DNA of 64,000 bases from Candidatus Eiseniibacteriota bacterium (GCA_963707915.1 OY970178.1:2560001-2624000), one strand, 5' to 3'. Counted from the first letter of the stretch, positions 47,017 through 63,418 are shown. Numbers and translations are program-made. The notes: generated by a model from the sequence alone, not told the origin.

Positions 47017-47249
47017 CCAGGCCCGGGGCAGTCGCGCGCGCTCCGGGACTCCTCCAAGCGGGGCCGAAAACCGGGAATGGACTCGAGTCACGCCGGTATA
47101 TCTCCGGGAAGGGGACGGCCGGACCTCGCTGCCCCGGAGCCGGAGACCGCGGAAGAGGTCCGCGGGCAAGGCGTTCGAGCGACGAAGCCGTAGGTTGGCA
47201 ACAGACGGGGGCATGGTACCACGGGAGGCCTTGCTATCGGGACGACAAT

Positions 47250-47265
47250 TCAGTAAAACTACTGA
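47250..47265. promoter_or_regulatory. Inverted-repeat operator candidate between divergent cytochrome genes
   Basis: TCAGTA-AAAC-TACTGA, AT-rich, inside a 470-bp divergent intergenic region. Confidence 0.5.
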
Positions 47266-47486
47266 CGTCTGTGGCCGGTCGGGCAAGGCAGGGTATCGCC
47301 CCCGGATCGGCCAGCGCAAGGAATCGAGCGAAGCTGCGGCGCCCGGAGGTTCCCGGGTCCCGCGGACGCGACCTCGGTCCTCCATGCGGAAGTCGGTTAC
47401 TCTGCGAGACGAGTCTCGTGGATCGCACACGACGCCTCGGCCTCGCGTTCCCAGGCAGGCCGTCACCTTCAATACCGGAGGGACAG

Positions 47487-48029
47487 ATGATCAAGAGGAT
47501 CCTCGCGTTGGTCGTGATGGGGGTGCTGGCGGCGAGCGTCGCGGCGCAGGCCGCGGACGCGCCGAAGAACGATTACGTCGGCGCGAGCCCGAAGGCATGC
47601 ATGTGCCACTTCAAGGAGTTCAAGGCGTGGTCGACGACCCCGCACGCGCACGCCCTCGAGGGCCTGAAGGCCACCACTCCCGAGCAGCTGAAGAAGATGA
47701 ACGAGATCCTCAAGTCCGCGGTCAAGGACCATCCCGAGACCGACGCGGCGTGCGTGGGCTGCCACGTGACCGGCTACAAGCAGGGCGGCTACCCGGCGGC
47801 CGATTCGATCAAGACCGCAGCGCTGGCGCACGTGGGCTGCGAGGTCTGCCACGGCCCCGCCAAGAACCACCTCGCGGTGCCGGCCAGCGACAAGGCGGGC
47901 CGGAAGGCCTCCATGCTGATCCCGACCGCCGAGACCTGCAAGAAGTGCCACACGGCGGAGATCTCGCCCAAGTTCGATTTCGCCGTGATGAGCAAGAAGG
48001 TGCATCCCATCGCCGCAGCGGCGAAGTAA
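47487..48029 (+). CDS. Periplasmic c554-like tetraheme cytochrome c (3 CxxCH + 1 CxCH)
   Basis: GGAGGG RBS, signal peptide, YVG..CMCH, CVGCH, VGCEVCHGP, CKKCH. Confidence 0.9.
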   Translation: MIKRILALVVMGVLAASVAAQAADAPKNDYVGASPKACMCHFKEFKAWSTTPHAHALEGLKATTPEQLKKMNEILKSAVKDHPETDAACVGCHVTGYKQGGYPAADSIKTAALAHVGCEVCHGPAKNHLAVPASDKAGRKASMLIPTAETCKKCHTAEISPKFDFAVMSKKVHPIAAAAK

Positions 48030-48050
48030 GCGATCCGAAGCCCAGCGACG

Positions 48051-50891
48051 ATGAAGGACAGCGCGGGTCGGCCGGCGGTTCGCAGGCCGGCCCGCGTTTC
48101 GCATGCCGGGCTCGTGGCGCTGGCGGCGGCGTTGTTCGCCGGCGCGCTGCTCCACGCGGCCTCGTGGGCGGCGCCCGAGGCGCCCAGGCCGCTCCCCGGC
48201 GCCGACGCTTGCGAGGGTTGCCACGAGGCCGGTCCGCCGCTCGCGAAGCGTGACGCGGATACGCCGCCACGCTTCGACGCCGCGGGGCTGCGCGCCTCGC
48301 CGCACGCGGCGCTGACCTGCACCGCCTGCCACGCGGACCTCGAGGGCAAGGACTTCCCGCACGAGGCGAAGCCGGCGCCGGTGCGCTGCGGCGGCTGCCA
48401 CGCGGCCGAGCAGCGCCAGTACGGCGAGAGCCTGCACGGCCAGGCCGCCTCGCGCGGGGAGAAGCTCGCGCCCTCGTGCAAGGAGTGCCACGGACGGCAC
48501 GCCGTCCTGCCGCGCAGCGACCCGCGCTCGCCCACCAACACGGTCAACGTCCCGGCGCTGTGCGGACGCTGCCACCACGAAGGCTCGCCGGTCCAGCTCA
48601 CCTACCACATCCCGCAGGACTCGATCCTCGCCAACTACTCCGAGTCCATGCACGGCGAGGGGCTGTTCAAGAAGGGGCTCCTGACGACGGCGGTGTGCAC
48701 CTCGTGCCACACCGCGCACCACGTCCTGCCGCACACCGACCCGCGCTCGAGCATCGCCCGGCGCAACGTGGTCGCCACCTGCACGCAGTGCCACGTGCGC
48801 ATCGAGCAGGTGCACCGCAAGATCATCAACGGCGTGCTGTGGGAGAACCGCCCCAACGACATCCCCGCCTGCGTGGACTGCCACCAGCCGCACAAGGCAC
48901 GCCGGGTCTTCTACACGCAGGGCATGGCCGACGCCGATTGCCAGTCGTGCCACGGCCGGCGCGCGCTCAAGGCGCAGGACGGCCGCTCGATGTTCGTGGA
49001 CCCGGCCGAGCTGCAGGGCTCCCGCCACGCCCGGATCGCCTGCGCGCAGTGCCACAGCGAGGCGCAGCCCTCGCACGCCCGGCCCTGCTCGACGATCACG
49101 CGCCGGGTGGACTGCTCGGTCTGCCACGCCGAGGTGGTGGACACCTACCGGAAGAGCACCCACGGGCAGCTGGCCGCCAAGGGCAGCCCCGACGCCCCGG
49201 GATGCCGCGACTGCCACGGCACGCACGGCATCCAGGGGCACCTGCAGTCGGACGCGCCGACCTACGCGCGCAACGTCCCGGCGCTGTGCGGGCGCTGCCA
49301 CCTGAGCGGCAAGAAGGCGCAAGTGCGCTATCGCGGGCCGGAGCGCCGGGTGGTGGAGTCCTACGTCGAGAGCATCCACGGCAAGGGGCTGCTCGAGAGC
49401 GGTCTCACCGTGACCGCGACCTGCGTGGACTGCCATACCACCCACGGCGAGCTGCCGCACACCGACCCGGCGTCCAGCGTCAACCCGGCGAACGTGGCGA
49501 AGACCTGCGCGAACTGCCACCGGGGGATCTACGAGCTCTACACGGCCAGCGTGCACTCGCCCTCGGTGACGAAGTCCAAGCGGCCGCTGCCCACCTGCTC
49601 GGACTGCCACTCGGCCCACACCATCAACCGCACCGACCGGCAGGACTTCAAGTTCGCGATCATGAGCCAGTGCGGCAAGTGCCACCGGGAGCTGGCGGAG
49701 ACCTACTTCGAGACCTACCACGGCAAGGTGTCGCGGCTCGGCTACCTCAAGACCGCGAAGTGCTACGACTGCCACGGCGCCCACGACATCCAGCCCAACT
49801 GGGATCCACGCTCGCACCTGTCACGGCAGAACATCGTGAAGACCTGCGCCGGGTGCCACCCCGGCTCGAACCGGCGCTTCGCCGGCTACCTGACCCACGC
49901 CACCCACCACGAGCCGCACAAGTACCCGGCGCTGTTCTTCGCCTTCTGGGGCATGACCGGGCTGCTGGTGGGCACCTTCGGCTTCTTCGGCCTCCACACC
50001 CTCGCCTGGCTGCCGCGCTCGCTCGCGTACCGGCGCGAGCTCGCGAAGACGCACGCCGGGGAGAGCGGGCTCCACGTGCGGCGCTTCCCGCCGCTCTACC
50101 GCAACCTGCACCTGATGGTGATCGTCTCCTTCCTCGGTCTGGCGCTCACCGGCATGACGCTCAAGTTCTCCTACTCGACCTGGGCCTACGTGCTGGCGCG
50201 CGCGCTCGGCGGCTTCGAGGCGGCGGGCTTCATCCACCGGGTCTGCGCGGGGATCACCTTCGCCTACTTCCTGCTGCACGTGCGCGACATGGTCCGGCGC
50301 AAGACGAAGTCCGGCGCGTCCTGGCGGACGTTCGTCGCCGGCGCGAGCGGCATGCTGCCCGGCCCCCGGGACCTCCAGGAATTCTGGCAGTCGATGAAGT
50401 GGTTCGCGGGCCGCGGCCCGCGGCCGCAGTACGGGCGCTGGACCTACTGGGAGAAGTTCGACTACTTCGCGGTGTTCTGGGGCGTGGCCATGATCGGCTC
50501 GACCGGTCTGGTGCTGTGGTTCCCGACCTTCTTCACCCGCTTCCTGCCCGGCATCTTCATCAACCTGGCGACCATCATCCACAGCGACGAGGCGCTGCTC
50601 GCGGTGGGCTTCATCTTCACCGTGCACTTCTTCAACACGCACTTCCGGCCCGAGAAGTTCCCCATGGACACGGTGATTTTCACCGGCACGGTGCCGCTGG
50701 AGGAGTTCAAGGCGGACCGGCCGCGCGAGTACGAGGAACTGCAGGCGAGCGGCGAGCTGGAGTCCCGCATCGAGCCCGCGCCCGCGCCGCGCACGGTGCG
50801 CGCCTGGCGCATCTTCGGCTTCATCGCGCTGTCGGTCGGGATCCTGATGGTGCTGCTCATCCTCTACGCCGCGATCTTCGGCTACCGCTAG
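48051..50891 (+). CDS. CbcL-like fusion: 19-heme cytochrome c + FdnI-type cytochrome b
   Basis: 19 CxxCH counted; TM domain with RNLH, IHR..H, YWEKFDYFAVFWG, IIHSDEALLA..VHFFNTH. Confidence 0.93.
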   Translation: MKDSAGRPAVRRPARVSHAGLVALAAALFAGALLHAASWAAPEAPRPLPGADACEGCHEAGPPLAKRDADTPPRFDAAGLRASPHAALTCTACHADLEGKDFPHEAKPAPVRCGGCHAAEQRQYGESLHGQAASRGEKLAPSCKECHGRHAVLPRSDPRSPTNTVNVPALCGRCHHEGSPVQLTYHIPQDSILANYSESMHGEGLFKKGLLTTAVCTSCHTAHHVLPHTDPRSSIARRNVVATCTQCHVRIEQVHRKIINGVLWENRPNDIPACVDCHQPHKARRVFYTQGMADADCQSCHGRRALKAQDGRSMFVDPAELQGSRHARIACAQCHSEAQPSHARPCSTITRRVDCSVCHAEVVDTYRKSTHGQLAAKGSPDAPGCRDCHGTHGIQGHLQSDAPTYARNVPALCGRCHLSGKKAQVRYRGPERRVVESYVESIHGKGLLESGLTVTATCVDCHTTHGELPHTDPASSVNPANVAKTCANCHRGIYELYTASVHSPSVTKSKRPLPTCSDCHSAHTINRTDRQDFKFAIMSQCGKCHRELAETYFETYHGKVSRLGYLKTAKCYDCHGAHDIQPNWDPRSHLSRQNIVKTCAGCHPGSNRRFAGYLTHATHHEPHKYPALFFAFWGMTGLLVGTFGFFGLHTLAWLPRSLAYRRELAKTHAGESGLHVRRFPPLYRNLHLMVIVSFLGLALTGMTLKFSYSTWAYVLARALGGFEAAGFIHRVCAGITFAYFLLHVRDMVRRKTKSGASWRTFVAGASGMLPGPRDLQEFWQSMKWFAGRGPRPQYGRWTYWEKFDYFAVFWGVAMIGSTGLVLWFPTFFTRFLPGIFINLATIIHSDEALLAVGFIFTVHFFNTHFRPEKFPMDTVIFTGTVPLEEFKADRPREYEELQASGELESRIEPAPAPRTVRAWRIFGFIALSVGILMVLLILYAAIFGYR

Positions 50892-50960: not shown

Positions 50961-51308
50961 CTACGCCACCGCCCGTCCCGCGTGGAGGTGCGCCAGCGCC
51001 TCGGTCACGCTGGTGAAGAGCGGCAGCGCGCCGGAGAGGTGGGTGACGCCGAGCAGCCAGCGCTGGGGGCGGTCGGCACCGCACAGCGCGACGCCCCCGC
51101 CGTTCGCCGAGGCGAGCTTCTGTGCCCGGGCGAGCAGGCCCAGGCAGTGCGCGGTCAGCACGCGCGCGTGGCTGAGGTCCACCACCACGCGGCGGCCCTG
51201 GCCGGCCAGCGCGATGAGCTCGCGTTCCAGTTCGTCGCAGGCGGCCCCTTCGAGGAAGTTCCCGCTCGGTTGGAGCACCACCAGCTCGTCAAACGCGTGT
51301 GAAGTCAT
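50961..51308 (-). CDS. STAS-domain (anti-sigma-factor antagonist-like) protein
   Basis: 115 aa; VVVDLS..L....LGLL...K....GG.V.L; upstream GAAAGGA RBS. Confidence 0.8.
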   Translation of the reverse strand: MTSHAFDELVVLQPSGNFLEGAACDELERELIALAGQGRRVVVDLSHARVLTAHCLGLLARAQKLASANGGGVALCGADRPQRWLLGVTHLSGALPLFTSVTEALAHLHAGRAVA

Positions 51309-51539: not shown

Positions 51540-51971
51540 ATGAAACGCCGCACCTTCCTCGACGCGGTCATCGCCGCGGCCGGAGCCGCCCTGGGGGCCT
51601 TCGTGCTCTACCCGGTCGCGCGCTACCTCGTACCCCCGAAGGCCCCCGAGGACACCACGCGCCGGGTCGTCGCCGCCAAGCAGGACGAAGTGGCCCCGGG
51701 TGGCTTCAAGATCTTCCCCTTCGGCGGCGAGCCCGGCATCCTGATCCGCGGCAAGGACGGCGGTTACCGCGCCCTCTCCGCGGTCTGCACGCACCTGGGG
51801 TGCACCGTCCAGCTCCGCCCCGACGGCCAGTCCATCTGGTGCGCCTGCCACAACGGCCTCTACGACCTCGAGGGACGCAACATCTCCGGGCCGCCGCCGC
51901 GGCCGCTCGAGTCCTACGTCGTGCACGTCGTCGGCGGGGACGTCGTGGTCGAGAAGGCGAAGGGCGCATGA
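51540..51971 (+). CDS. Rieske [2Fe-2S] subunit 1
   Basis: Tat signal MKRRTFL, CTHLGC, CACHNG.Y, GPPPRPL. Confidence 0.93.
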
Positions 51972-53041
51972 GCCTGAACGACTGGCTGCGGGAACGGCTC
52001 GGCCTGGAGGCGCTCGATCACGTGATCGAGCAGAAGCGCGTGCCCGTCCACCGTCATTCGTTCTGGTACTACTGGGGCGGGATGACGCTGTTCCTCTTCG
52101 GGGTCCAGGTGGTGACCGGCATCCTGCTGGTCCTCTACTACCGGGCGAGCGCCGACGAGGCCTACGAGAGCGTCCGCTTCCTGATGACGCAGGTGTCGTT
52201 CGGCTGGCTCATCCGCTCGATCCACTCCTGGTCCGCGAACCTGATGGTGGGCGCGGCCATGATCCACATGTTCAGCGCCTTCATGCTCAAGGCCTACCGC
52301 CGGCCGCGCGAGGCGACCTGGCTCACCGGCATGGCGCTCTTCGTGCTGTGCCTGGCCTTCGGCTTCAGCGGCTACCTGCTGCCGTGGAACCAGCTGGCGT
52401 TCTTCGCCACCAAGGTGGGCACGGACATCATGGGGAGCGTGCCGCTGGTCGGCCCCTTCCTCGCGCGACTGCTGCGCGGCGGCGACCAGATCACCGGCGG
52501 AACGCTCACGCGGTTCTTCGGCTTCCACGTGGCCATCCTGCCGCTGTGCATGACGGCGCTGCTGGGCGTCCACCTGTTCCTGGTGCAGTGGCACGGCATG
52601 AGCGTGCCGCCCGGCCTCGAGCCGCCCGCGGCCGCGCCGAAGAAGGAGATGAAGTTCGTCCCCGACTTCCTGCTGCGTGACCTGGTGGGCTGGCTCGCGG
52701 CACTGGGCGCGCTCGCCCTGCTGGCGGCGCTGTTCCCCTGGGAGCTGGGGCTCAAGGCCGACCCGTACGCGTTCGCGCCCGCCGGCATCAAGCCCGAGTG
52801 GTACTTCGGCTACATGTTCCAGACCCTGCGCATGATCCCTTCGAAGGTGCTCGGGGTCGAGGGCGAGCTGCTGGGCATCGTGGGCTTCGGGCTGGGCGCC
52901 CTGGTCTGGGCGCTGGTCCCGTTCCTCGACTCGCCCGACGGCCGCGGCCCGCGGGCGCGCGCCTGGCGGGTGATCGGCGTGCTGGCGATGCTCTACGTGG
53001 TCGTGTTCACCTTGCTGGTCTACCGCGGAGGCCCGTCTTGA
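51968..53041 (+). CDS. Cytochrome b 1 (b6 + subunit IV-like fusion), canonical
   Basis: All four heme His present (HSWSAN..IH; FHVA..VH), GYLLPW, PEWY; start overlaps the Rieske stop. Confidence 0.94.
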
Positions 53042-54273
53042 GATCCCTGCGCCGCTGCCTGGTCCTGGCGGGCGCGCTGCTGCTGGCGGCGGCGCCCGTG
53101 CGCGCCGCGGTGGACAGCTGCGTCGAGTGCCACCGCGGGCTCGACGACCCGCGCCTGAAGGCCCCGGTGGCGGGCTTCCTGCGCGACATCCACGCCGAGC
53201 GCGGCCTCACCTGTGCCGCCTGCCACGGCGGCGATCCCGCGGACCCCGACCCTTCGGCGATGGACCCCGACAAGGGGTTCAAGGGCGTCCCCGCCCGGGC
53301 GCAGGTCGCGGCGATGTGTGCCTCGTGCCACGCCGACGCGGCCCTGATGAAGCGCTACAACCCGCGGCCCTACGTGTTCTCGATGGCCGAGTGGCAGACC
53401 AGCGTGCACGCGAAGCTCGCGGCGCGGGGTGACACCAAGGTCGCCACCTGCACGAGCTGCCACGGCGTGCACGGCATCCGCCCGCCGAAGGACCCCGCCT
53501 CGCCGGTCTTCAAGACCAACGTCCCGCGGACCTGCGCGAAGTGCCACAACCCCGGGTACATGAAGGGCCACGCCATCCCCACCAACCAGTTCGCGCTCTA
53601 CTCGAAGAGCGTGCACGGCGTGGCGCTGCTCGAGAAGGGCGACGTCTCCGCGCCGGCCTGCAACGATTGCCACGGCAACCACGGCGCGGCCCCGCCGGGC
53701 CTGAAGGACGTGGCGATGGTGTGCGGCACCTGCCACGGCCGCGAGGCCGAGCTGTTCGAAGGCAGCCGGATGAAGGCGGGCCTCGACGCGATGGGCAAGC
53801 CCGGTTGCGTGACCTGCCACGGCAACCACGGGGTGCAGCACCCGACCGACGCGATGCTCTCCGCGGCGCCGGGCGGCAAGTGCGCGGGCTGCCACCAGCC
53901 CGGCTCGGTCTGCGAGCAGGGCACGGACGCGATCGTGACCAGCTTCCGCGGCCTGCGCGGCGCGGTCGCTTCCGCCGACAGCCTGCTCAAGGTGGCCGAG
54001 GTGCGCGGCATGGAGACCGGCCCGGGCCGCGAGAACCTGAAGGCGGCCCAGGACGCGCTGGTCGGCGTGCGCGCCGGGCTGCACAGCTTCGACCCGAAGC
54101 AGATCGGGGCCGTCCTCGCCGAAGGGGCGGCGCTCAGCCGCAAGGCGGCGGACTACGGGCGCGCGGCGCTGCGCGACTGGCACAACCGCCGTCTCGGCAT
54201 GGTGCTCTCGCTGGTCGTCATCCTGGTGCTGATCGGGCTGCTGGTCGCGAGGATCCGCCGGATGGAGTCGTAG
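53038..54273 (+). CDS. Membrane-anchored nonaheme cytochrome c 1
   Basis: TTG start overlapping the cytochrome b stop; signal peptide, 9 CxxCH, helical region, C-terminal TM. Confidence 0.9.
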
Positions 54274-54296
54274 GAGCGGAACGCGGGCAAAGCCGA

Positions 54297-54330
54297 CGGG
54301 CCCGGAGGCGCTGGATCGCCTCCGGGCCCG
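54297..54330. terminator. Hairpin (probable bidirectional terminator) between convergent respiratory operons
   Basis: 14-bp perfect stem CGGGCCCGGAGGCG/CGCCTCCGGGCCCG with a 6-nt loop. Confidence 0.7.
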
Positions 54331-54351
54331 GTGCGTTTCCGCGTGGCGCCG

Positions 54352-55560
54352 CTACGCCGGCAGGACCGGCGTCTCCTCGGCCCGCTTCGCCGGCAGCAGC
54401 CGGACCAGCACGAACAGGATGAGGAAGGGCGCGATCAGCAGCCCGAGCGCGGTGACCAGCCCCTCCAGCCCGGTCATCTCCATCTTGTAGGCCATCAGCC
54501 CGCGGAAGCTCTTGGAGAAGAGCTGCCCGCCGATGACCACGTTCCAGCGCGTGCTGAAGATGCCGAGCTGGATCAGGATCGCCGAGGCGAAGTAGAGGAG
54601 CTTCCTCAGGTCCGGGTTCACCCGCCGGGCGCGCGTCGCCACCATCAACGCCAAGGGAACGAGCATGCCGAGCAGGACCTGGAGGATGACCAGGTTCATG
54701 AAGAGCTTCACCGAGATGAGCTGGGCGAGGATCTTCACCGATTCCTCGCTCTGGTAGAGGCGATGGATGAAGTCGAGCGCCTCGAGCGAGAAGTCCACGA
54801 CCACCGCGTAGAAGAGGTACGACGCCACCTTGTCCAGGCACTTCATGTCCAGGACCTGGTTCCGCAGGGAGGTGATCACCATGTAGAGGAGCAGCACCAG
54901 CGCGATGCCGGAGACGATGGCCGACATGAGGAAGACGATGGGCATGAGCACGCTGCTCCACCACGGATTGGCCTTGATCGAGCCGAAGATGAAACCCACG
55001 TAGCCGTGGAGCAGGAAGGCCGACGGGATGCCGACGATGGTGATCGTGCGGACCGCCCGGCGGTCGAAGGCGACCGCGCGCTCGCTGATGTCGGTCGAGA
55101 ACAGCGACAGCGCCCGGTAGACCCAGCGGAGCAGGCCGGTGTGCTCGCGGCCCCACACCACCAGGTCGCGCCGGTACTCGAACCAGATCTCCAGCAGCAG
55201 GATGCCCATCAGGTACCAGGCGTAGACGAACCCGAACATGGCCATCGCCGAGGACAGGTGCGGCGCGAGGAAGATCTCGAAGGAGCGCTCCATGTGCCCG
55301 AGGTGCAGGAGCAGCGGGAAGGGCGCCACCAGCAGGAAGGACAGCGCGGTCAGGAGGGCGAGCCGGTAGGTGGGCTGGACCTCCTTCACGTTGAAGACCT
55401 TGACCAGCGAGGCCAGGATGAACGCGCCGGCCACGAGCCCGGTGAGGTACGGGTAGACCACGATCAGGATCGACCAGTGGATCTCGATCTCGTTCGGGTA
55501 GATGTACCCGATGACCTGCTGCAGCAGCTCCGCCAGGTTGGGCGGCACCTGGGCGATCAT
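54352..55560 (-). CDS. NrfD/PsrC-family quinol-interacting membrane subunit
   Basis: W..LIVVYPYLTGLVAG, LLHLG, SAM..FG, LHGYVGFIF, NPWW, RWNVVIGGQ. Confidence 0.92.
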   Translation of the reverse strand: MIAQVPPNLAELLQQVIGYIYPNEIEIHWSILIVVYPYLTGLVAGAFILASLVKVFNVKEVQPTYRLALLTALSFLLVAPFPLLLHLGHMERSFEIFLAPHLSSAMAMFGFVYAWYLMGILLLEIWFEYRRDLVVWGREHTGLLRWVYRALSLFSTDISERAVAFDRRAVRTITIVGIPSAFLLHGYVGFIFGSIKANPWWSSVLMPIVFLMSAIVSGIALVLLLYMVITSLRNQVLDMKCLDKVASYLFYAVVVDFSLEALDFIHRLYQSEESVKILAQLISVKLFMNLVILQVLLGMLVPLALMVATRARRVNPDLRKLLYFASAILIQLGIFSTRWNVVIGGQLFSKSFRGLMAYKMEMTGLEGLVTALGLLIAPFLILFVLVRLLPAKRAEETPVLPA

Positions 55561-56324
55561 CGCACCTCTCCGTCGAGCTGGGCGTAGAAGACCTTGGGCT
55601 CGGTGTTGAGCGCGGGCTTCAGCACGTTGATCTTGTTCATGCGCTGGAAGCGCACCAGGCGGCTCGCCTTGCTCCGGAGGTCACCGAAGACCCGCGCCTG
55701 GGTCGGGCAGACCTCGACGCAGGCCGGCAGCAGCCCCTTGACCACGCGGTGGTAGCAGAAGGTGCACTTGTCCGCGGTGTTCGTGCGGTGGTTGAAGAAG
55801 CGCGCCCCGTAGGGACAGGCCTGGATGCAGTAGCGGCAGCCGATGCAGCGCGTGCTGTCCACCAGCACCACGCCGTCCGCGGTCGTGAAGGTGGCGCCGA
55901 CCGGGCACACCTGCACGCAGGGCGCATGCGCGCAGTGGTTGCAGAGCTTCGGCACGAAGAAGGAGCGCAGCACCTCGCGCTCGTCCTGCGGCTTCCGTTC
56001 CCCGCGCGGGTCCACGCTGATGCACTGGACCTCGGTCTCGCCGTTCGACTTCACCGTGTAGCGTTCGACCCAGGTGCGGAAGAAGAACGGCTCCGGCGGC
56101 ACGTCGTTCTCGACCTTGCACGCCTCGGCGCAGCGGTTGCAGCCGATGCACTTCTCGACCTCGATCCCCATGCCGTACCAGTGATCCTTCGGCTCGTAGC
56201 CGGGGGTCGGCGACCCGGCGGCGGCGGTCCCGGCGGCGGCCGCGGCCGAGTGCGCCAGGGCCTGCAGCACGGCGGCGGCCGGGATGAAGGCGATGGCCCC
56301 CTTGAGGAACTCGCGCTTGTTCAT
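55557..56324 (-). CDS. NrfC/PsrB-like 4x[4Fe-4S] protein
   Basis: Tat-like MNKREFLKG; CIGCNRC, CNHC..CVQVCP, CIGCRYC..CP, KCTFC..PACVEVCP. Confidence 0.93.
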   Translation of the reverse strand: MNKREFLKGAIAFIPAAAVLQALAHSAAAAAGTAAAGSPTPGYEPKDHWYGMGIEVEKCIGCNRCAEACKVENDVPPEPFFFRTWVERYTVKSNGETEVQCISVDPRGERKPQDEREVLRSFFVPKLCNHCAHAPCVQVCPVGATFTTADGVVLVDSTRCIGCRYCIQACPYGARFFNHRTNTADKCTFCYHRVVKGLLPACVEVCPTQARVFGDLRSKASRLVRFQRMNKINVLKPALNTEPKVFYAQLDGEVR

Positions 56325-57055
56325 GGCCGTCCTTCCGGCAGGTGGGGGTAGTGGCACTGCCAGCACAGGTAGCCGCCGCCGTGGGTGGCGAGCTCGACCT
56401 TGGGCGCGTCCGGGTTGGCCGTGCCGCTGGCGTGGCACTGCCCGCAGAACTCGCGGGTCTGGGGCTTGCTGGGCAGGGCGCTGCGCGGCGCCGTGCGGTG
56501 CTGCTCGCTCGCGGTGTGGCAGGTCACGCAGGGCAGCAGCGCGTGCGCCGAGAGGGCCACGGTCCGGGCGATCTGCGCGTGGCAGGCCGAGCACTCCCGC
56601 GGGGTCTGCGGCGGCACCGGGTCGTGCGGATTGTGGCAGGTGATGCAGGGCTTGAGGGGGTTGTGGGCCTCGGGGTTGATCTGCGGGAAGCCCGTGGGCC
56701 GCGCCGCGTCGTAGGCGTGGCAGACCGGGCAGAACTTGCGGTCGCGGGGCGCGAAGGGCTTGACCGACATCGGGTCCTCCGCGTGCTTCGCGGCGGGCCC
56801 GTGGCAGGTCTCGCAGGCGAGCCCCTTGTGGTAGCCCTGGGCCTTCTTCTCCCACTCCTCCGCGTGGCAGTCCTGGCACGCGGAGGCGCCGGCGAAGTTG
56901 ACCGGCCGGGCGACCTCGCGCCGCACGGTGGCGGACTGGTGGACCGCGGCGGAGAAGTAGTCGCGCGGGATCAGCACGAACCGCACGAGCAGCGCCAGCG
57001 CCACGATGAGCGCGAGCATCGCGGCGATGCGCGTGACCTGCTCGGGGACCTTCAA
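56321..57055 (-). CDS. Membrane-anchored octaheme cytochrome c
   Basis: N-terminal TM; 8 CxxCH; stop overlaps the start of the NrfC-like gene. Confidence 0.9.
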   Translation of the reverse strand: MKVPEQVTRIAAMLALIVALALLVRFVLIPRDYFSAAVHQSATVRREVARPVNFAGASACQDCHAEEWEKKAQGYHKGLACETCHGPAAKHAEDPMSVKPFAPRDRKFCPVCHAYDAARPTGFPQINPEAHNPLKPCITCHNPHDPVPPQTPRECSACHAQIARTVALSAHALLPCVTCHTASEQHRTAPRSALPSKPQTREFCGQCHASGTANPDAPKVELATHGGGYLCWQCHYPHLPEGRP

Positions 57056-57190
57056 GCGTCCTCCCGGTTCTGCGGTGCCGCGGCCACGGCCTGACTCGAG
57101 TGGGGCATCCTAGCAGGGAAGCGCCCGTCAGGGGAGCGCAAAACCCGCGATCCGGCTACTACCATCGGCTACCGGCTCCGGCGGCGGTAC

Positions 57191-59008
57191 CTACTCCTGA
57201 TGGCACTGCGCACAGACGGCCTTCGCGGGCCGCAGTTGCCCGGCGGCCGGGTCGTGGCAGGTCTTGCACTCGAGATCCATGCCGAGGTGGGCCTGGTGCG
57301 AGAACTCGCCGCGGAAGCTCTTCACGCTGTGCGTCTTCACGTCCGCATGGCACTGGAGGCACGAGCCGCCCGCGTCGGCGGTCTTGCGATGATGGCAGGG
57401 CACGCAGCCGGCCGGTCCGAAGCGCACGACCTCGCCGGCCGCGCGTTCCTCGTGCGTCCGGTGGCAGGCGTCGCACTCGAGCTTCGCCCGGAGCAGGTGC
57501 GGCCCGTGGTCGAAGGCCTTGCCCTGCCAGGCCCCGCGCTGCGCCTCGACGCCGGTGTGGCACAGCATGCAGCGTCCCGAGCTGGCGCCGGTGCGCCGCC
57601 AGGGCAGCTCGAGCGGGGCCAGCCCCTTCGCGCGGCGCGCCTGGTTCATCAGCTCGTGGGAGCGGTCGAGCAGGGCGTAGGCGTACGCCATGTTGTGCAC
57701 CGCCTTGCCCTGCGAGACCAGCAGGAAGTCGTGCCGCGCGTCCTGCCACGACGGCGGCGGCTGGAGGCCCATCGCGCCGTTGGTCGCCTCGAGCTGGCGC
57801 TGCAGCGCGGCGACCCGCGCGGCGGAGGCGCTCTGCCAGGACTTGAAGATCGCATCGTACCCCGGGCCGTGGCAGGCCATGCAGGAGACCCCGTCGGCGC
57901 GCTGGATGACCGGCTCGAGCGGGCCCTTCGCGGCCTGGGTCGCGACGGCCTCGCCGTTGTGGCAGCCCTGGCAGGTGACGCCCACCACGAACATCGGTCC
58001 CGGCTGGTCGGGCACGCCGCGCCCGCCGGTGCCGGCGTAGAGGCTCTGCTGCGCGTCGTGGCCCGCGCCGTGGCACGGCCCGCAACTGCCCGCGTCCACG
58101 GCGCCCGCGCCGTGCGCATCCGTGCGCACATCCCTCGGCGCGGTGCCGTGCGCGATCACCAGGTGACAGTTCGTGCAGTCCACCTTGTGCTTCGAGACGT
58201 GCCAGTCGTGCAGGTACTCGGTGTCGCGGTAGCGCGCGAGCCGCTCGGGCTGGTTGTGGCAGGTGAGGCAGCGGATCTGCGGCACGTCGCCGGTGCCGCG
58301 GATCACCCCCGCGTGGCAGGCGCTGCACGAGGTGCCCAGGCGCGCGACCTCGCCGTGGTCGAACGGCGTGCCGGCGGCGGTGGTGACCCGCCCCGGAACG
58401 GCGTGACAGAGCCGGCAGCGCGCGGTGCCCTGGTCGGGCGTCTGCCCCTTGAAGTGGCACAGCGCGCAGGTCGTCGGCGTGACGGCGATGTGCGAGCCGA
58501 CCATGACCTGCGAATGGCACGAGGTGCAGCGCAGCCGGAAGCCCTTGCGGCTCTCGGTGAGGTGCGGGGTGTGGTCGAAGATCACGCCCTGGAAGTCGAC
58601 CTTGCCCTCGAGCAGCCGGCGCTCGTGGCAGCGCAGGCAGTTGGCGTCGTCCACCTCGGCCCAGGGCTTGGTGCCGTAGGTGGCGGTGAAGTACTTCACC
58701 ACCATCGACAGCGCCTCGTACTTCTTGCGCAGCTCGGCGCCGATCCCCGGCGAGATGTGGCACTCGACGCAGGCGATGTGGCCGTGCTTCGACGCCTTCC
58801 ACGAGGCGTAGTAGGGCTTCATGATGTGGCAGGTGCCGCAGAACTGCGGCGTCGAGGTGCCGAGCATCGCGACCAGGGTGAGCACGACGAACAGGCCGAG
58901 GGCGAGCCCGGCGGTCAGCGTGATGCCGCGCAGGCTCCGCCAGCCTCCCTGGCCGCCGGGCCAGCGGCCGCGGGGCTGGCCGGGACCCGGCCCCGGGACG
59001 CCGGTCAT
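57191..59008 (-). CDS. 18-heme cytochrome c with N-terminal NapC/NirT/NrfH-type domain
   Basis: TM then TSTPQFCGTCHIM..Y.SW..S.H..IACVECH; 18 CxxCH in 605 aa. Confidence 0.9.
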   Translation of the reverse strand: MTGVPGPGPGQPRGRWPGGQGGWRSLRGITLTAGLALGLFVVLTLVAMLGTSTPQFCGTCHIMKPYYASWKASKHGHIACVECHISPGIGAELRKKYEALSMVVKYFTATYGTKPWAEVDDANCLRCHERRLLEGKVDFQGVIFDHTPHLTESRKGFRLRCTSCHSQVMVGSHIAVTPTTCALCHFKGQTPDQGTARCRLCHAVPGRVTTAAGTPFDHGEVARLGTSCSACHAGVIRGTGDVPQIRCLTCHNQPERLARYRDTEYLHDWHVSKHKVDCTNCHLVIAHGTAPRDVRTDAHGAGAVDAGSCGPCHGAGHDAQQSLYAGTGGRGVPDQPGPMFVVGVTCQGCHNGEAVATQAAKGPLEPVIQRADGVSCMACHGPGYDAIFKSWQSASAARVAALQRQLEATNGAMGLQPPPSWQDARHDFLLVSQGKAVHNMAYAYALLDRSHELMNQARRAKGLAPLELPWRRTGASSGRCMLCHTGVEAQRGAWQGKAFDHGPHLLRAKLECDACHRTHEERAAGEVVRFGPAGCVPCHHRKTADAGGSCLQCHADVKTHSVKSFRGEFSHQAHLGMDLECKTCHDPAAGQLRPAKAVCAQCHQE

Positions 59009-60229
59009 CTAGCGGTTCCTCGCATCCTGGTCGCGGAAGCGCCTGAGCACGAACAGCGTCAGCAGCACGTAGAACCAGAACGCGATGAGCACGTAGCGGT
59101 GCTGGCCCAGGTTGGCGAGCTTGCCCTCGAGTTCCTTCTGCACCTCCTGGCCCACCGCGCGGGCGCGGGTGGTGAAACCGGCCACGACCTCGGGCCGCAC
59201 GGAGTGCGCGGCCGGCAGCGCCTCGCGCAGGTAGGTGCGGGCCTCCTCGATGCGAGCGTGGTAGTCCTCGGTCTGGAGGGGGATGGCGTCGGCTTTCGCC
59301 ACCAGCGCCGCGGCGCGGTCCACCTCGTCCGCCGCGGTGGTGTAGTCGGTCCAGACCCTGCGGCCCAGGTCGAGCCGGCGCGGGTCGCCGGCGTGGCACC
59401 CGACGCACGACGAGGCCAGCCGCTCGGGCCGCGCCGGCTGTACGCCGTGCGCCTCGTGGCAGGACGCGCACTCGGGACGCTTGCCGCCGCGTGCCACGGC
59501 GTGCCCGCCCGCGGTGTAGTAGCGCCGCTCGGCGGTGTGGCACTGTCCGCACACCTTGTCGATGTCGCCGATGTTGGGCGGGTTGGCGCCGTGCACGCCG
59601 TGGCAGGACACGCAACTCGGCGCGCGCAGGTTGCCCTGCTCCAGCAGGGCCTTCGCGTGGACGCTCGACAGGTACGGCTTCAGCACGTCCGGCCGCCCGG
59701 CCTTCCCCGGCGCGCCGCCGCCGTGACAGCGCCCGCAGGTCCGCGGGATGTTGAGCTGGTAGACGCTGCTCGCCGGGTCGCGGGGCGCGAGGATCTCGTG
59801 GGCGCCGTGGCAGTCCGAGCAGACCGCGACCTGGGCGTCGCCCCGGGCCAGCCGCTGGCCGTGGCCCGAGGTCTGGTAGAGCGCGTACTGGTCCACGGGC
59901 AGGTTGTAGGGGCGCATGCGCGACTCGTCGGAGTGGCAGGTGGCGCAGAGCGCCGGGATGTCCCGGCGCGCGGGGCGCCCCCGGAAGCCGGCACCGTGCG
60001 CGGCCCCGGCGACGAGGCTGCGGTCGTCGCCGCCGTGGCACGAGACGCAGCGCACGCCCTCCAGGGCGTGGCTGCTCCTCTCGAACTGGACGCGCTCGGC
60101 CGGATGGCAGACGCCGCAGCGGCCCGAAGCGGGGGCGACGGCCGCCGGCGCCGCCGGCGCCGGGACCGCCAGGGCGACGGCAGGCGGGGCCGCGGCCGCG
60201 AGGAGCAGGAACGCGAGCAGGGTCTTCAT
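59009..60229 (-). CDS. Membrane-anchored nonaheme cytochrome c 2 (paralog of 53038-54273)
   Basis: Signal peptide, 9 CxxCH with similar spacing to copy 1, helical region, C-terminal TM. Confidence 0.9.
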   Translation of the reverse strand: MKTLLAFLLLAAAAPPAVALAVPAPAAPAAVAPASGRCGVCHPAERVQFERSSHALEGVRCVSCHGGDDRSLVAGAAHGAGFRGRPARRDIPALCATCHSDESRMRPYNLPVDQYALYQTSGHGQRLARGDAQVAVCSDCHGAHEILAPRDPASSVYQLNIPRTCGRCHGGGAPGKAGRPDVLKPYLSSVHAKALLEQGNLRAPSCVSCHGVHGANPPNIGDIDKVCGQCHTAERRYYTAGGHAVARGGKRPECASCHEAHGVQPARPERLASSCVGCHAGDPRRLDLGRRVWTDYTTAADEVDRAAALVAKADAIPLQTEDYHARIEEARTYLREALPAAHSVRPEVVAGFTTRARAVGQEVQKELEGKLANLGQHRYVLIAFWFYVLLTLFVLRRFRDQDARNR

Positions 60230-60233
60230 CGCC

Positions 60234-61364
60234 CTACCTCCGCTCGAGCAGCGCGCCGAGCACGCTGAGGGCGAGCCACACGAGGAGCACGGCGCCGCCC
60301 GCCAGCCGGATGCGGCGCCGGCGGGTGGGGGTCTCGTCGCCCCGCAGCCACAGCGGCAGGAGCAGCACCGCGAAGGCCGCGGCCAGCAGCACGAACCCGC
60401 TCAGCCAGGGCAGGGGCAGGCGCTGGAGCAGGACGTAGGGCGCCAGCATGTACCACGGCGGGCGCACCCCGCCGGGCGTGACGTAGGGATCGGCCACCCC
60501 GTGGAAGCGCAACGGCAGCAGCGTGGCCAGCGTCACGAGGATCGCGAACAGCCCGACCGTGAGCATGGCCATCGAGTAGAAGTGCTCGCGATAGCGGATC
60601 GGCCGCTCGTCGCGCGCCGCCCCGGTCCGGCTCAGGCCGACGCGCCGGAGCGTGGCGAACGTGAGGTACAGGAAGGCGGCGTAGAACCCCGGCAGCACCA
60701 TGACGTGCAGCACGTAGAAGCGGATCAGCACGTCCTCGTTCACGGTCCGGCCGCCGAGCAGGAAGGCCAGCACCGGCCCGGCGAGGGGGATCGCCCAGAC
60801 CACCTCGAGCCCGCGCACCGTGCTCCAGAAGCTGTGCGCGTCCCAGGTGAGGAGGCGCCCGGTGAAGTCCGACTGGACGACCACCCAGGTCATGGCCACC
60901 GCGCACCACCACAGCACCTCGCGGGGCGCGCGGTACAGCCCTTCCCAGAACAGCCGCAGCAGGCGCAGGACGATGATCGCCACCAGCAGCCACGAGCCCC
61001 ACGCGTGCACCTGGTGGATGAACCAGCCGCCCGGCAGGTCGCGCACGATGGTGCGCGTGCTCTCGAAGGCGGCCTCGGGCGTGGGCCGGTAGTAGTAGGC
61101 GAGCAGCACGCCGGTCACGAGTTGCAGGCCGAACAGGATGGCGGCGAGCAACCCCAGCACGCGGGCGCCGTGCGCGTACCGGGGCAGCGGCTCCGCGGCC
61201 ACGTCGTGCAGCACCTCGCGCACCGGTTTCCGCGTGTCCATCGGCGTGTAGATCAGCCCGAAGTGGGTGACGAAGGAGAAGATCTCGCTCAGGTTCACGC
61301 GCTGCTCGAGCCAGTCGACCCAGCCGCCGCGCGCGGGCGGACCCTGCTTGCCGGGCCCGTTCAT
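60234..61364 (-). CDS. Cytochrome b 2, atypical (two heme His lost; PPWY)
   Basis: Cytochrome b fold motifs (GLQLVTG.LL..YY.P, YRAPRE..W, RFYVLHV, ADPY.TP..VRPPWY); only the first His of helices B and D is retained. Confidence 0.88.
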   Translation of the reverse strand: MNGPGKQGPPARGGWVDWLEQRVNLSEIFSFVTHFGLIYTPMDTRKPVREVLHDVAAEPLPRYAHGARVLGLLAAILFGLQLVTGVLLAYYYRPTPEAAFESTRTIVRDLPGGWFIHQVHAWGSWLLVAIIVLRLLRLFWEGLYRAPREVLWWCAVAMTWVVVQSDFTGRLLTWDAHSFWSTVRGLEVVWAIPLAGPVLAFLLGGRTVNEDVLIRFYVLHVMVLPGFYAAFLYLTFATLRRVGLSRTGAARDERPIRYREHFYSMAMLTVGLFAILVTLATLLPLRFHGVADPYVTPGGVRPPWYMLAPYVLLQRLPLPWLSGFVLLAAAFAVLLLPLWLRGDETPTRRRRIRLAGGAVLLVWLALSVLGALLERR

Positions 61365-61825
61365 ACCTGGACGAAGATCTCGCCGGCGCGGACCGACACC
61401 GGGTAGCTGGGGAGCGGCCGGGGCGGCGGGCCGGCGAGCACGTTGCCCGAGAGGTCGAAGCGCCCGTCGTGGCAGGGACAGACCAGCGTCCGGCGTGCCG
61501 GCTCGTAGCCCAGGATGCAGCGCACGTGGGTGCACACCGCCGAGATGGCGAGCACGCGCGTGGCGTCGAGACGGACCACGTAGAAGGGCATCACCCCGTG
61601 ACGCACGAGACGGCCTTCGCCCACGCGGTAGTCGGCCAGCAGCCCGGCGCTCACGGTGCGCTCGGCGTCGCGCTTCTCGGGGGCCTTGAGGTAGGCGCCC
61701 ACCACGGCGGCGGCGCCGAGCCCCCAGAGGGCGAGGAACGCCTGGGACAGCACGGTGAGGAACCGGCGCCGGTCCGCGGAGGCGGACGCCGGCAGGTGGA
61801 TCGGACGGTCTTCAGGGATCGGCAT
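61361..61825 (-). CDS. Rieske [2Fe-2S] subunit 2
   Basis: Tat signal DRRRFL, CTHVRC, CPCHDGRF, GPPPRPL. Confidence 0.92.
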   Translation of the reverse strand: MPIPEDRPIHLPASASADRRRFLTVLSQAFLALWGLGAAAVVGAYLKAPEKRDAERTVSAGLLADYRVGEGRLVRHGVMPFYVVRLDATRVLAISAVCTHVRCILGYEPARRTLVCPCHDGRFDLSGNVLAGPPPRPLPSYPVSVRAGEIFVQV

Positions 61826-62065
61826 GGGATCTCCGACGGGGTCGGGGACGCACGTCGCGCGGGCGGGCTGCCGCACCCACTGGCCCGCGGCCGGCCAGTG
61901 CCACGCGCGTGGCGACAAGTCCAGCCGGCATCATAGCCCGTGACTGCCGCCCGGCCAATGCGCCTCGAGTCCCATACGCGGTCCGCCCGGGGCCGCCGTC
62001 GCCGGCCCCACGCCCCGCGGGATTCGCTCGACCTGCCGTCGCATTTGCGTTATGAAGTCCCCATC

Positions 62066-63418
62066 ATGATGACGCCCAGGACCGGAGGGGTCGCACTGGC
62101 CGTGGTGCTCGGGGTCTTCCTGCTGCCGGGCCGCGCCCTTGCCGCGAGCGGCGGCCCCGACCTGGCACCGCTGTTGCTGGCCCTGGTGCTGGTGCTGCTC
62201 GGCGCCCGGCTGGGCGGCGCGCTGGCGGAGAAGCTCGGCCAGCCGCCCGTCCTGGGCGAGTTGCTCGCCGGGATCGTCATCGGCAACCTCGGCCTGCTCG
62301 GCTGGCACGGGGCCGACGGCCTGCCCGGGCTCCCCGGCCTCGAGTTACTGGCGCAGATCGGCGTGATCTTCCTGCTCTTCGAGGTGGGGCTCGCCTCGGA
62401 GGTCGGGCAGATGCTCGCGGTGGGCGGCTCGGCGCTGCTGGTGGCGACGCTGGGCGTGATCGCGCCGATCGGTCTCGGTTTCCTGGTCTCGCACGCGTTC
62501 TTCCCGGCGCACCACCCCCTGACCCACTGGTTCGTCGGCGCCACGCTGTGCGCCACCAGCGTGGGCATCACCGCGCGGGTGCTCGCCGACCTGGGGCGCA
62601 CCGGGAGCCGCGAGGGCCGCATCATCCTCGGGGCGGCGGTGATCGACGACGTGCAGGGGCTGCTGGTGCTCGCGGTGATCACGGGCATCATCGATTCGAT
62701 CGCCGGCGGGCGGCCCTTCGGCGCCGGCGCGGCGCTGCTCATCGTGGCGAAGGCGGTCGCGTTCCTGGTGGTCGCGGTCGTCCTCGGCCGCTCGGTCTCG
62801 AGCCGCGTCTTCCGTCTCGGCGCGCACCTGCGCGGGGAGGGCGTGCTGCTCTCCCTGGCGCTGGCCTTCTGCTTCTCCTCCGCGTGGCTCGCGGGGCTGC
62901 TGGGCCTGGCGCCCATCGTCGGCGCCTTCGCCGCCGGGCTCGTGCTGGACGAGGTCCACTACCGCGACCTGCGGGCGCGCGACCGGGCCCAGCGCGACGT
63001 GCAGACGCTGCTCAAGCCGATCTCCACGTTCCTGGTGCCGGTCTTCTTCGTCCTCATGGGGATGCGCGTGGACCTCTCGGTGTTCGGCCGGGCCGGCATC
63101 CTGGGCTTCACCGCCGCGCTCGTCGCGGTCGCGCTGGTGAGCAAGCAGGCCTGCTCCCTGGGCGTGCTGGACCGGGGGACCGACCGGCTGGCGGTGGGGC
63201 TGGGCATGATCCCGCGCGGCGAGGTCGGGCTCATCTTCGCGGGGATCGGGAGCGGGCTGATGATCGGCGCCGAGCGCGTCGTGGACCCGACGATATTCTC
63301 TGCCGTGGTCGCCATGGTCGCCGCGACCACGTTGCTCACACCACCGCTGCTGGCGTGGCGGTTGAGGCGGTTGCCACTCGAGCCCGGATCGACGCAGGGC
63401 GGTCCTTCCGGGGGTTGA
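62066..63418 (+). CDS. CPA2 cation:proton antiporter (NapA-like Na+/H+)
   Basis: QPPVLGELLAG, LLFEVGL, ATSVGIT, AAVIDD, FFVLMG, MIPRGEV. Confidence 0.9.
   Translation: MMTPRTGGVALAVVLGVFLLPGRALAASGGPDLAPLLLALVLVLLGARLGGALAEKLGQPPVLGELLAGIVIGNLGLLGWHGADGLPGLPGLELLAQIGVIFLLFEVGLASEVGQMLAVGGSALLVATLGVIAPIGLGFLVSHAFFPAHHPLTHWFVGATLCATSVGITARVLADLGRTGSREGRIILGAAVIDDVQGLLVLAVITGIIDSIAGGRPFGAGAALLIVAKAVAFLVVAVVLGRSVSSRVFRLGAHLRGEGVLLSLALAFCFSSAWLAGLLGLAPIVGAFAAGLVLDEVHYRDLRARDRAQRDVQTLLKPISTFLVPVFFVLMGMRVDLSVFGRAGILGFTAALVAVALVSKQACSLGVLDRGTDRLAVGLGMIPRGEVGLIFAGIGSGLMIGAERVVDPTIFSAVVAMVAATTLLTPPLLAWRLRRLPLEPGSTQGGPSGG

Follow-up and report, generated by a model that had tools for sequence, protein, structure and literature searches.

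A cytochrome b lineage without the bis-histidine inner-haem site, encoded with a Rieske protein and two multihaem cytochromes in Candidatus Eiseniibacteriota

The stretch of DNA analyzed here, referred to below as the window, comprises 64,000 nucleotides of a Candidatus Eiseniibacteriota bacterium (GCA_963707915.1, OY970178.1:2560001-2624000), and its final 19 kb form a respiratory island in which two gene cassettes converge, each encoding a Rieske iron-sulfur protein, a cytochrome b and a nine-haem cytochrome c; the second cassette, whose cytochrome b (b2) lacks two of the usual haem ligands, is the subject of this text. Gene identities were taken from Pfam, and haem counts are counts of CxxCH motifs. 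Cassette 1, on the plus strand, consists of Rieske1 (51540-51971; Pfam Rieske, expectation value (E) 8.2e-14), with the cluster boxes CTHLGC and CACHNGLY, of the canonical cytochrome b named b1 (51968-53041; Pfam 7.7e-49; Cytochrome_B and Cytochrom_B_C), and of cytc1 (53038-54273), which has nine CxxCH motifs and a C-terminal membrane helix and whose likely start is a TTG at 53038 overlapping the b1 stop. Cassette 2, on the minus strand, has the same gene order, with Rieske2 (61361-61825; Pfam Rieske, E 2.5e-12; boxes CTHVRC and CPCHDGRF), the 376-residue b2 (60234-61364; Cytochrome_B 3e-32, Cytochrom_B_C 5e-07) and the nine-CxxCH cytochrome cytc2 (59009-60229; Pfam multihaem families). b1 and b2 are the two cytochrome b genes of the host genome. 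A reading made from the window's sequence alone (the sequence-only reading) had described these twin convergent cassettes, and the open reading frames do lie where it had placed them, in the order it had given. It had, however, ended cassette 2 at 59009; its three genes stand, but the cassette does not end there, since a fourth gene on the same strand, NapC605 (57191-59008; Pfam Cytochrom_NNT), encodes a NapC/NirT-type protein with 18 CxxCH motifs and belongs to it.

Spacing within the module is close in the window: Rieske2 and b2 overlap by 4 nt, b2 and cytc2 are separated by 4 nt, and cytc2 and NapC605 by 0 nt. Synteny was followed by tblastn with the window proteins, in loci from a contig scan and from phylum genomes of the families f1, f11 and f18. 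The order Rieske2-b2-cytc2-NapC605 was found in all six evaluable contig-scan loci (one further locus, L004, breaks off immediately behind b2 and could not be assessed) and in 12 of 12 further loci from the three families, so that NapC605 stands beside b2 at 18/18 evaluable loci in total, in three families of the phylum. Because of this fixed linkage, NapC605 is considered part of the unit and not a mere neighbor. The protein begins with a membrane helix, followed by a NapC/NirT domain with the motif FCGTCHIM, which places it in the NapC/NirT family; it scores 49.9 bits against PF03264 (cut-off 24.1) over residues 30-134, and its 18 CxxCH motifs compare with four or five in typical NapC/NirT members. 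In complex predictions of b2 with residues 20-210 of NapC605, the score was 0.00 in two runs, a value with no bearing on binding either way. cytc2, which has a signal peptide and a C-terminal membrane helix and is 33% identical to cytc1, provides the c-type subunit and is the counterpart of cytochrome c1/f. Rieske2 has both cluster boxes with the disulfide cysteines and a Tat-like (twin-arginine translocation) N-terminus, RRRF. Its box II reads CPCH(D/E/N)GxF in 17/19 orthologous loci, with Phe where Rieske1 has Tyr (5/5 orthologs). In mutant studies, losing the hydrogen bond of the box II Tyr lowers the potential of the Rieske cluster, and the Phe of Rieske2 should likewise go with a lower cluster potential. 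Two orthologs of Rieske2 from genomes of genus g15, at L085:10477-10881 (minus strand) in G124 and L094:8907-9308 (plus strand) in G129, have CPCDGGRY in box II, where the cluster-ligating His (CPCH) is expected, and no obvious twin-arginine motif; b2 was the sole cytochrome b found in both genomes (checked with Pfam in G124 and by protein searches in G129).

The two cytochromes b are 31% identical (BLASTP). b1 has all four His ligands, the four haem-contact Gly of both pairs and the Qo motif PEWY, so that cassette 1, with its Rieske protein and c-type subunit, contains the full set of features of a Rieske/cytochrome b complex. In b2, the ligands of the outer haem bL, His120 and His220, are in place, whereas the second His of helix B in b1 aligns with Arg134 (codon 60963-60965, minus strand), the second His of helix D with Thr235 (codon 60660-60662, minus strand), and PEWY with PPWY (60450-60461, minus strand). 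An HMMER alignment to a solved cytochrome b6 (b2 against the PDB cytochrome b6, E 2.2e-31) puts Arg134 on b6 His100 and Thr235 on b6 His202. The residues named in the sequence-only reading, in b1 as in b2, are thus borne out by both alignments. The second His residues of helices B and D ligate one and the same haem, bH; this too had been claimed, is textbook knowledge and fits the b6 alignment. On these alignments, b2 cannot bind the inner haem bH via two His. Of the four His and two b haems of Rieske/cytochrome b complexes, it offers only the bL pair. The cytochrome b fold with its N- and C-terminal domains is present, with 112 bits for PF00033 and 30 bits for PF00032, both over cut-off. An AlphaFold2 model, the output of which consists of confidence values and secondary structure, reached a predicted local distance difference test score of 84 and a predicted template modeling (TM) score of 0.82, and among PDB entries it resembles cytochrome b chains most closely (TM 0.68-0.74). 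An N-terminal insertion of ~25-30 residues (about residues 24-47; window about 61224-61295, minus strand) is conserved and specific to the clade of Arg-bearing sequences. Glu27 and Ser30 are invariant in it, and Phe29, Phe31, Phe35, Gly36, Asp43 and Pro47 are found at at least 90%; the insertion is placed after the first amphipathic helix and ahead of helix A, close to the former inner-haem region on the cytoplasmic side.

Conservation of the altered positions was followed at increasing distance from b2. A word-indexed protein search gave 362 proteins at E ≤ 1e-10, of which 120, with 63-92% identity, were listed. Among these listed matches, the helix-B bH position is Arg in 120/120, the helix-D bH position has 118 Thr and two Ser, and the four positions of PPWY hold Pro (118, Ala in two), Pro (119, Ala in one), Trp (120) and Tyr (120). 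At 19/19 genome loci, the helix-B position is Arg and the Qo motif reads PPWY. When the clade was aligned (n=130), Arg134 was present in 130/130 sequences, while position 235 was occupied by Thr (118), His (8), Ser (3) or Asn (1). Retention of the His residues by close homologs, which the sequence-only reading had named as a sign of recent decay or sequencing error, is thus absent as far as the pair is concerned; among distant orthologs, however, those of family f18 (40-47% identical to b2) keep the helix-D His in 4/4 loci, and never the helix-B His. The Arg change is older than the Thr change, since the helix-D position varies within the Arg clade and f18 keeps its His. Extreme third-position G+C compresses dS, so the ratio of nonsynonymous to synonymous substitution rates (dN/dS) is meaningful only when compared from gene to gene. 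Measured against L003, a 92%-identical locus, it was 0.186 for b2, 0.154 for b1, 0.206 for the neighboring NrfD gene, 0.174 for the adjoining iron-sulfur (FeS) subunit gene and 0.114 for Rieske2; three more b2 comparisons gave 0.29-0.36, similar to neighboring genes.

The ancestry of b2 was examined through an exhaustive representative search, which returned 4884 homologs; the best 150 cluster representatives were examined, and 18 of these best 150 have Arg at the helix-B position. In a quick FastTree phylogeny of 91 full-length rows (Shimodaira-Hasegawa-like support without bootstrap, midpoint rooting), the Arg-bearing sequences form one clade with support 100 that is not sister to b1, the relatives of which are canonical; one row within the Arg clade, P0136, has all four His. 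The tree indicates that the Arg clade is old and that b2 did not arise from b1 by recent copying. Because the substitutions are conserved, dN/dS is like that of the neighbors and the Arg clade is deep and monophyletic, the view that the bH ligand changes in b2 reflect selection and not decay is supported, as the sequence-only reading had argued and as its proposed dN/dS check, which shows purifying selection, agrees. A sequencing error or recent decay was ruled out by homolog conservation together with dN/dS. Further departures from the four-His pattern were met among the representatives. In the tree, P0147, P0247 and P0262 form a clade of their own without bH ligands (Phe/Leu, Phe/Arg and Ile/Phe), P0144 (Phe/Leu) has lost them separately from that clade, and P0223 (Tyr/His), also outside the Arg clade, lacks one. 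Since separate lineages outside the Arg clade are without bH ligands, the inner-haem site has been lost more than once. These other ligand-less lineages are mostly hydrophobic at the ligand positions, and the helix-A Gly is lost in three of four; it is kept in P0247, which has Arg at the helix-D position.

Occurrence was surveyed in 206 phylum genomes, with b2-type genes counted at E ≤ 3.6e-63 and b1-type genes at E ≤ 1e-60. A b2-type gene is present in 63/206, and 60 of these 63 also encode a NapC605-type protein; fragmented assemblies (63-83% complete) account for the other three, with b2 at a contig end in two. NapC605-type matches (E ≤ 1e-60) without b2 occur in nine genomes. A b1-type gene accompanies b2 in 41/63 genomes and is missing from 22/63, of which 15 are at least 90% complete. 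Six of these 22 have a weaker second cytochrome b-like match, which in G090 is a short b6-like gene, and sixteen have none in either search. In the b1-less genomes that were checked (92-98% complete), b2 is the only PF00033 match in 5/5, and many phylum genomes have b1-type without b2. Conserved pairing of b2 with a canonical copy, which the sequence-only reading had proposed to test, does not hold, given the 22 genomes without b1-type. The same-genus genome G139 (5 contigs) provides an example: its locus L083 (G139:C4:597500-617499) reads STAS-NapC605-cytc2-b2-Rieske2-exchanger, without Rieske1-b1-cytc1 and without the c244-FeS-NrfD genes described below. The pattern of L083 looks as if a single block between STAS and NapC605, comprising both gene sets, had been lost or gained. 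In the window and in 5/18 loci (L003, L007, L008, L009 and L088), the b1 cassette is found close to b2. Some relatives have a third, short b6-like cytochrome b (G090:C4:50765-51301, G173:C15:13994-14533, G160:C31:4846-5388), with frames of ~250-340 amino acids that match b1 residues about 30-210 only; it is absent from the host genome.

The host genome is a single contig of 3.62 Mb, 94.8% complete and with 73% G+C, whose nearest relatives are metagenome-assembled genomes labelled Candidatus Eisenbacteria. The first 44 kb of the window contain housekeeping genes. Upstream of cassette 1, the respiratory island contains two fusions of a multihaem c region with a cytochrome b561 domain, one with 13 CxxCH motifs (44929-46980, minus strand) and one with 19 (48051-50891, plus strand), a c554-like cytochrome (47469-48029, plus strand) and a STAS protein (50961-51308, minus strand); the fusions and the c554-like gene (44929-50891) lie next to the b2 module in the majority of related loci. 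Between the two cassettes, all on the minus strand, lie c244, a membrane-anchored cytochrome with eight CxxCH motifs (56321-57055), a four-cluster 4Fe-4S ferredoxin-type subunit (55557-56339; Pfam Fer4_11 3.5e-28) and an NrfD/PsrC-type integral membrane quinone-interacting subunit (54352-55560; Pfam NrfD 1.1e-35). c244, 135 nt downstream of NapC605, opens this c-haem/FeS/NrfD quinone module and is conserved in L003, L007 and L008 and absent from the same-genus L083. A Na+/H+ exchanger (61940-63418, plus strand) follows Rieske2 at the other end. Counting both b561 fusions, the NrfD module and NapC605, the island contains six putative quinone-linked modules. Futalosine-pathway genes are present in the host genome and point to menaquinone as the quinone. 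The genome's sole match to haem-copper oxidase subunit I (PF00115), at G000:C1:1399300-1400573 outside the window, is split into five pieces in alternating open frames, which suggests frameshifts, due either to assembly indels or to a broken gene. A promoter and terminator scan gave one promoter-like site upstream of Rieske2 and otherwise no excess over shuffled expectation. Close relatives occur in sediment metagenomes. A search for sequencing runs gave small shares only (at most 0.18), and four runs were examined. The one RNA-library run among them contained contigs ~90% identical to the window (57491-61575) that span NapC605/cytc2 and cytc2/b2/Rieske2; DNA carry-over is possible in such a library and a contig over two genes is not proof of a single transcript, so these contigs are a weak hint that relatives express the b2 module.

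The b2 module shares with the canonical bc1, b6f and menaquinol bc complexes the Rieske boxes CxH...CxCH, the cytochrome b fold, the bL ligands with their contact Gly, and the Rieske-b-c gene order with a membrane-anchored c-type cytochrome next. It differs from them in having no bis-His bH site, PPWY for PEWY, the N-terminal insertion and an always-linked 18-haem subunit of NapC/NirT type. It amounts to a variant of that known type of complex and does not constitute a system of a new kind. In a large survey of the Qo motif, Kao and Hunte took the four His to be invariable and discarded every sequence in which even one was missing, on the rationale that losing either haem leaves an incomplete Q cycle; families like b2 for that reason fell outside it (PMC4122944). 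The same text reports PPWY for functional bc1 complexes of Acidithiobacillus ferrooxidans, and the cytochrome b of Pyrobaculum aerophilum as the single exception, at His197, among 166 cluster representatives (PMC4122944). Compared by that description, the Pyrobaculum protein differs from b2 in that only its helix-D ligand is affected and in being archaeal, in an unrelated context. In the cyanobacterial subfamily K, the helix-2 His of haem bn is replaced, and its function and haem number, in the words of the source, 'remain obscure' (Dibrova et al. 2017; PMC5600118). As described there, its members are short b6-type proteins with Glu or Gln at the ligand position and no helix-1 bn Gly, additional to a normal b6 (PMC5600118). 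Subfamily K is the nearest precedent for b2, in which its defining features are not found: b2 is a fused long form (376 amino acids, including a C-terminal domain) in which Arg stands at the ligand position and Gly71 is kept; Rieske, c and NapC-type genes of its own accompany it, and a genome may have it as the sole cytochrome b. As functional analogs of the b2 module, we propose the CbcL/ImcH-type quinol:multihaem oxidoreductases of Geobacter. The analogy, which extends to NapC/NirT, would lie in quinol oxidation at the outer face, multihaem c chains, the absence of a Q cycle and several 'gears' per genome; the b2 module differs in that its quinol site would be the Qo site of a Rieske/cytochrome b complex, not of NapC or b561 type. 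No description of the b2 family or of a Rieske-b-multihaem-NapC module was found in the open-access literature searched.

It is proposed, with a probability of about 0.5, that Rieske2, b2, cytc2 and NapC605 make up a stand-alone, membrane-bound menaquinol:multihaem-cytochrome c oxidoreductase that works without a Q cycle. b2 appears to keep the Qo side of the enzyme, with the Rieske cluster, the bL ligands and contact Gly and the PPWY loop. Lacking haem bH, it would have no means of passing electrons through the membrane to a site of quinone reduction, and because of this missing path the enzyme likely runs without the textbook Q cycle. Both menaquinol electrons would end in the 27 periplasmic c-type haems, passing either twice via the Rieske cluster or once via the Rieske cluster and once from bL, and the only energy conserved would come from quinol protons set free on the outside in scalar fashion. 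The module would be independent of the adjoining, Q-cycle-capable b1 complex and may act as a lower-yield, 'lower-gear' outlet to acceptors, or as a reversible donor link, where a full Q cycle is unfavorable. A non-Q-cycle module feeding the 18-haem protein was one of the two alternatives offered by the sequence-only reading; it has become the best-fitting one and has gained from the fixed linkage of NapC605, yet it is still inferred. Likewise, the lack of any cofactor in the pocket, the paths taken by the electrons and their direction, and the partners in the cell are inferred from the genes.

In favor of this proposal, the outer-haem features His120, His220, Gly85 and Gly169 are present in 130/130 clade sequences, and the helix-C bH contact Gly, present in 124/124 canonical representatives with a residue there, is Ala in 122/130 clade sequences and Gly in six. 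Several observations weigh against it. Around the former bH site the pocket does not, judging from its residues, look abandoned. The helix-A bH contact Gly71 (14 residues before the bL Gly) is kept in 123/130. Position 155 in helix C stays small, Ala or Gly in 128/130. Arg137, which aligns with b6 Arg103, is invariant in the clade, as is Arg240, which corresponds to b6 Arg207 by alignment reading with the b6 number counted by hand; among 128 canonical representatives, 84 and 79 have Arg at the respective positions. Clade members 40-47% identical to b2 still have the helix-D His, 4/4 f18 loci among them. The polar Arg and Thr would be unusual for a simple filled-in pocket, since the independent ligand-less lineages are hydrophobic (Phe/Ile/Leu) and mostly without the helix-A Gly. 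To our knowledge, there is also no precedent for a second electron leaving bL at useful rates. Fillers of the pocket were sought and dropped: a Leu at the helix-A position proved to be a variable neighbor of the conserved Gly71, and the clade-invariant Tyr233 was rejected by helix geometry alone, because it lies two residues before position 235 and faces away. A conserved substitute ligand (His, Met, Cys or Lys) was not found among the clade-invariant residues.

These features have led us to consider, as possible though tentative, that the pocket is occupied and a modified Q cycle survives, with an occupant at the former bH site taking electrons directly from bL. It may be a menaquinone headgroup held by Arg134 and by Thr, His, Ser or Asn at position 235, or a haem without bis-His ligation, five-coordinate where His235 is kept and of unspecified ligation in b2. 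The retained Gly71, the small position 155 and the invariant Arg137 and Arg240 would suit such an occupant, as would the ability of all residues seen at positions 134 and 235 to donate hydrogen bonds, the long retention of the helix-D His in part of the Arg clade, the N-side motifs that are invariant in the clade (for example P147-R148-E149-W152) and the hydrophobic character of the independent ligand-less lineages. On the other hand, we know of no natural haem b site with Arg and Thr for both axial His, Thr and Ser are unable to ligate haem iron, and the Gly and Arg residues may be conserved for the sake of helix packing and the positive-inside rule. Another arrangement, which the gene content makes conceivable and which we hold to be improbable, is a periplasm-facing electron bifurcator, in which the Qo site would split the two menaquinol electrons: the high-potential electron would go via Rieske2 to cytc2 and the low-potential one, with no inner haem to accept it, would pass from bL to the membrane-proximal haem of NapC605 and on into its 18 haems. 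If true, this would place a strongly reducing electron outside the membrane, and reversed it would let two streams of electrons join in the quinone pool; we know of no cytochrome bc complex that bifurcates into a NapC/NirT-type haem chain.

Somewhat less credible still is the same four-subunit complex working mainly in reverse, with electrons of external origin, Fe(II) or a reduced mineral or partner being possible donors, entering via the 18- and nine-haem proteins, reaching the Rieske cluster and bL and reducing menaquinone at a Qo-type site. One bc1 complex of Acidithiobacillus ferrooxidans works uphill. The richness of the island in multihaem quinone-linked modules and the occurrence of close relatives in sediment metagenomes would be consistent with reversal, as would PPWY, the Qo motif reported for the A. 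ferrooxidans complexes, which is however explained in the same source as an adaptation to acid (PMC4122944). No outer-membrane conduit or marker of Fe oxidation turned up, although no search was aimed at them, and direction of flow is not readable from sequence. The other alternative of the sequence-only reading, a b1/b2 heterodimer in which the bL electron of b2 crosses the dimer to the single Qi site of b1, has some basis in the two cassettes sharing one island in the window and five related loci, in the b1-type gene of 41/63 b2 genomes, and in the catalytic bL-bL transfer reported for engineered bc1 (PMC4330944). It is nevertheless very unlikely. As an obligate arrangement it is disfavored by the 22/63 b2 genomes without b1-type, the five in which b2 is the only cytochrome b, and L083; the two genes are 31% identical members of different deep clades and sit in separate convergent operons, each with its own Rieske protein and nine-haem cytochrome. 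Because b2 occurs without another cytochrome b, b1 occurs widely without b2, and the two are ancient paralogs with their own partners, an obligate heterodimer is unlikely. That b2 is a decaying or non-catalytic copy, as the loss of two of four usually invariant residues might suggest, can be given hardly any weight against its intact open reading frame, dN/dS of 0.19-0.36 in four comparisons, a replacement Arg in 130/130, partner genes intact in 18/18 loci and its presence as sole cytochrome b in several near-complete genomes.

Altogether, b2 represents the loss of the inner-haem bis-His site in a whole lineage under purifying selection, in at least three families and 63/206 genomes. As such, it is a natural test object for what a Qo site does if electrons of the low-potential chain have nowhere to go, and for how short circuits are avoided or exploited. 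Automated calls of 'complex III present' in metagenome bioenergetics can hide enzymes of different proton yield.

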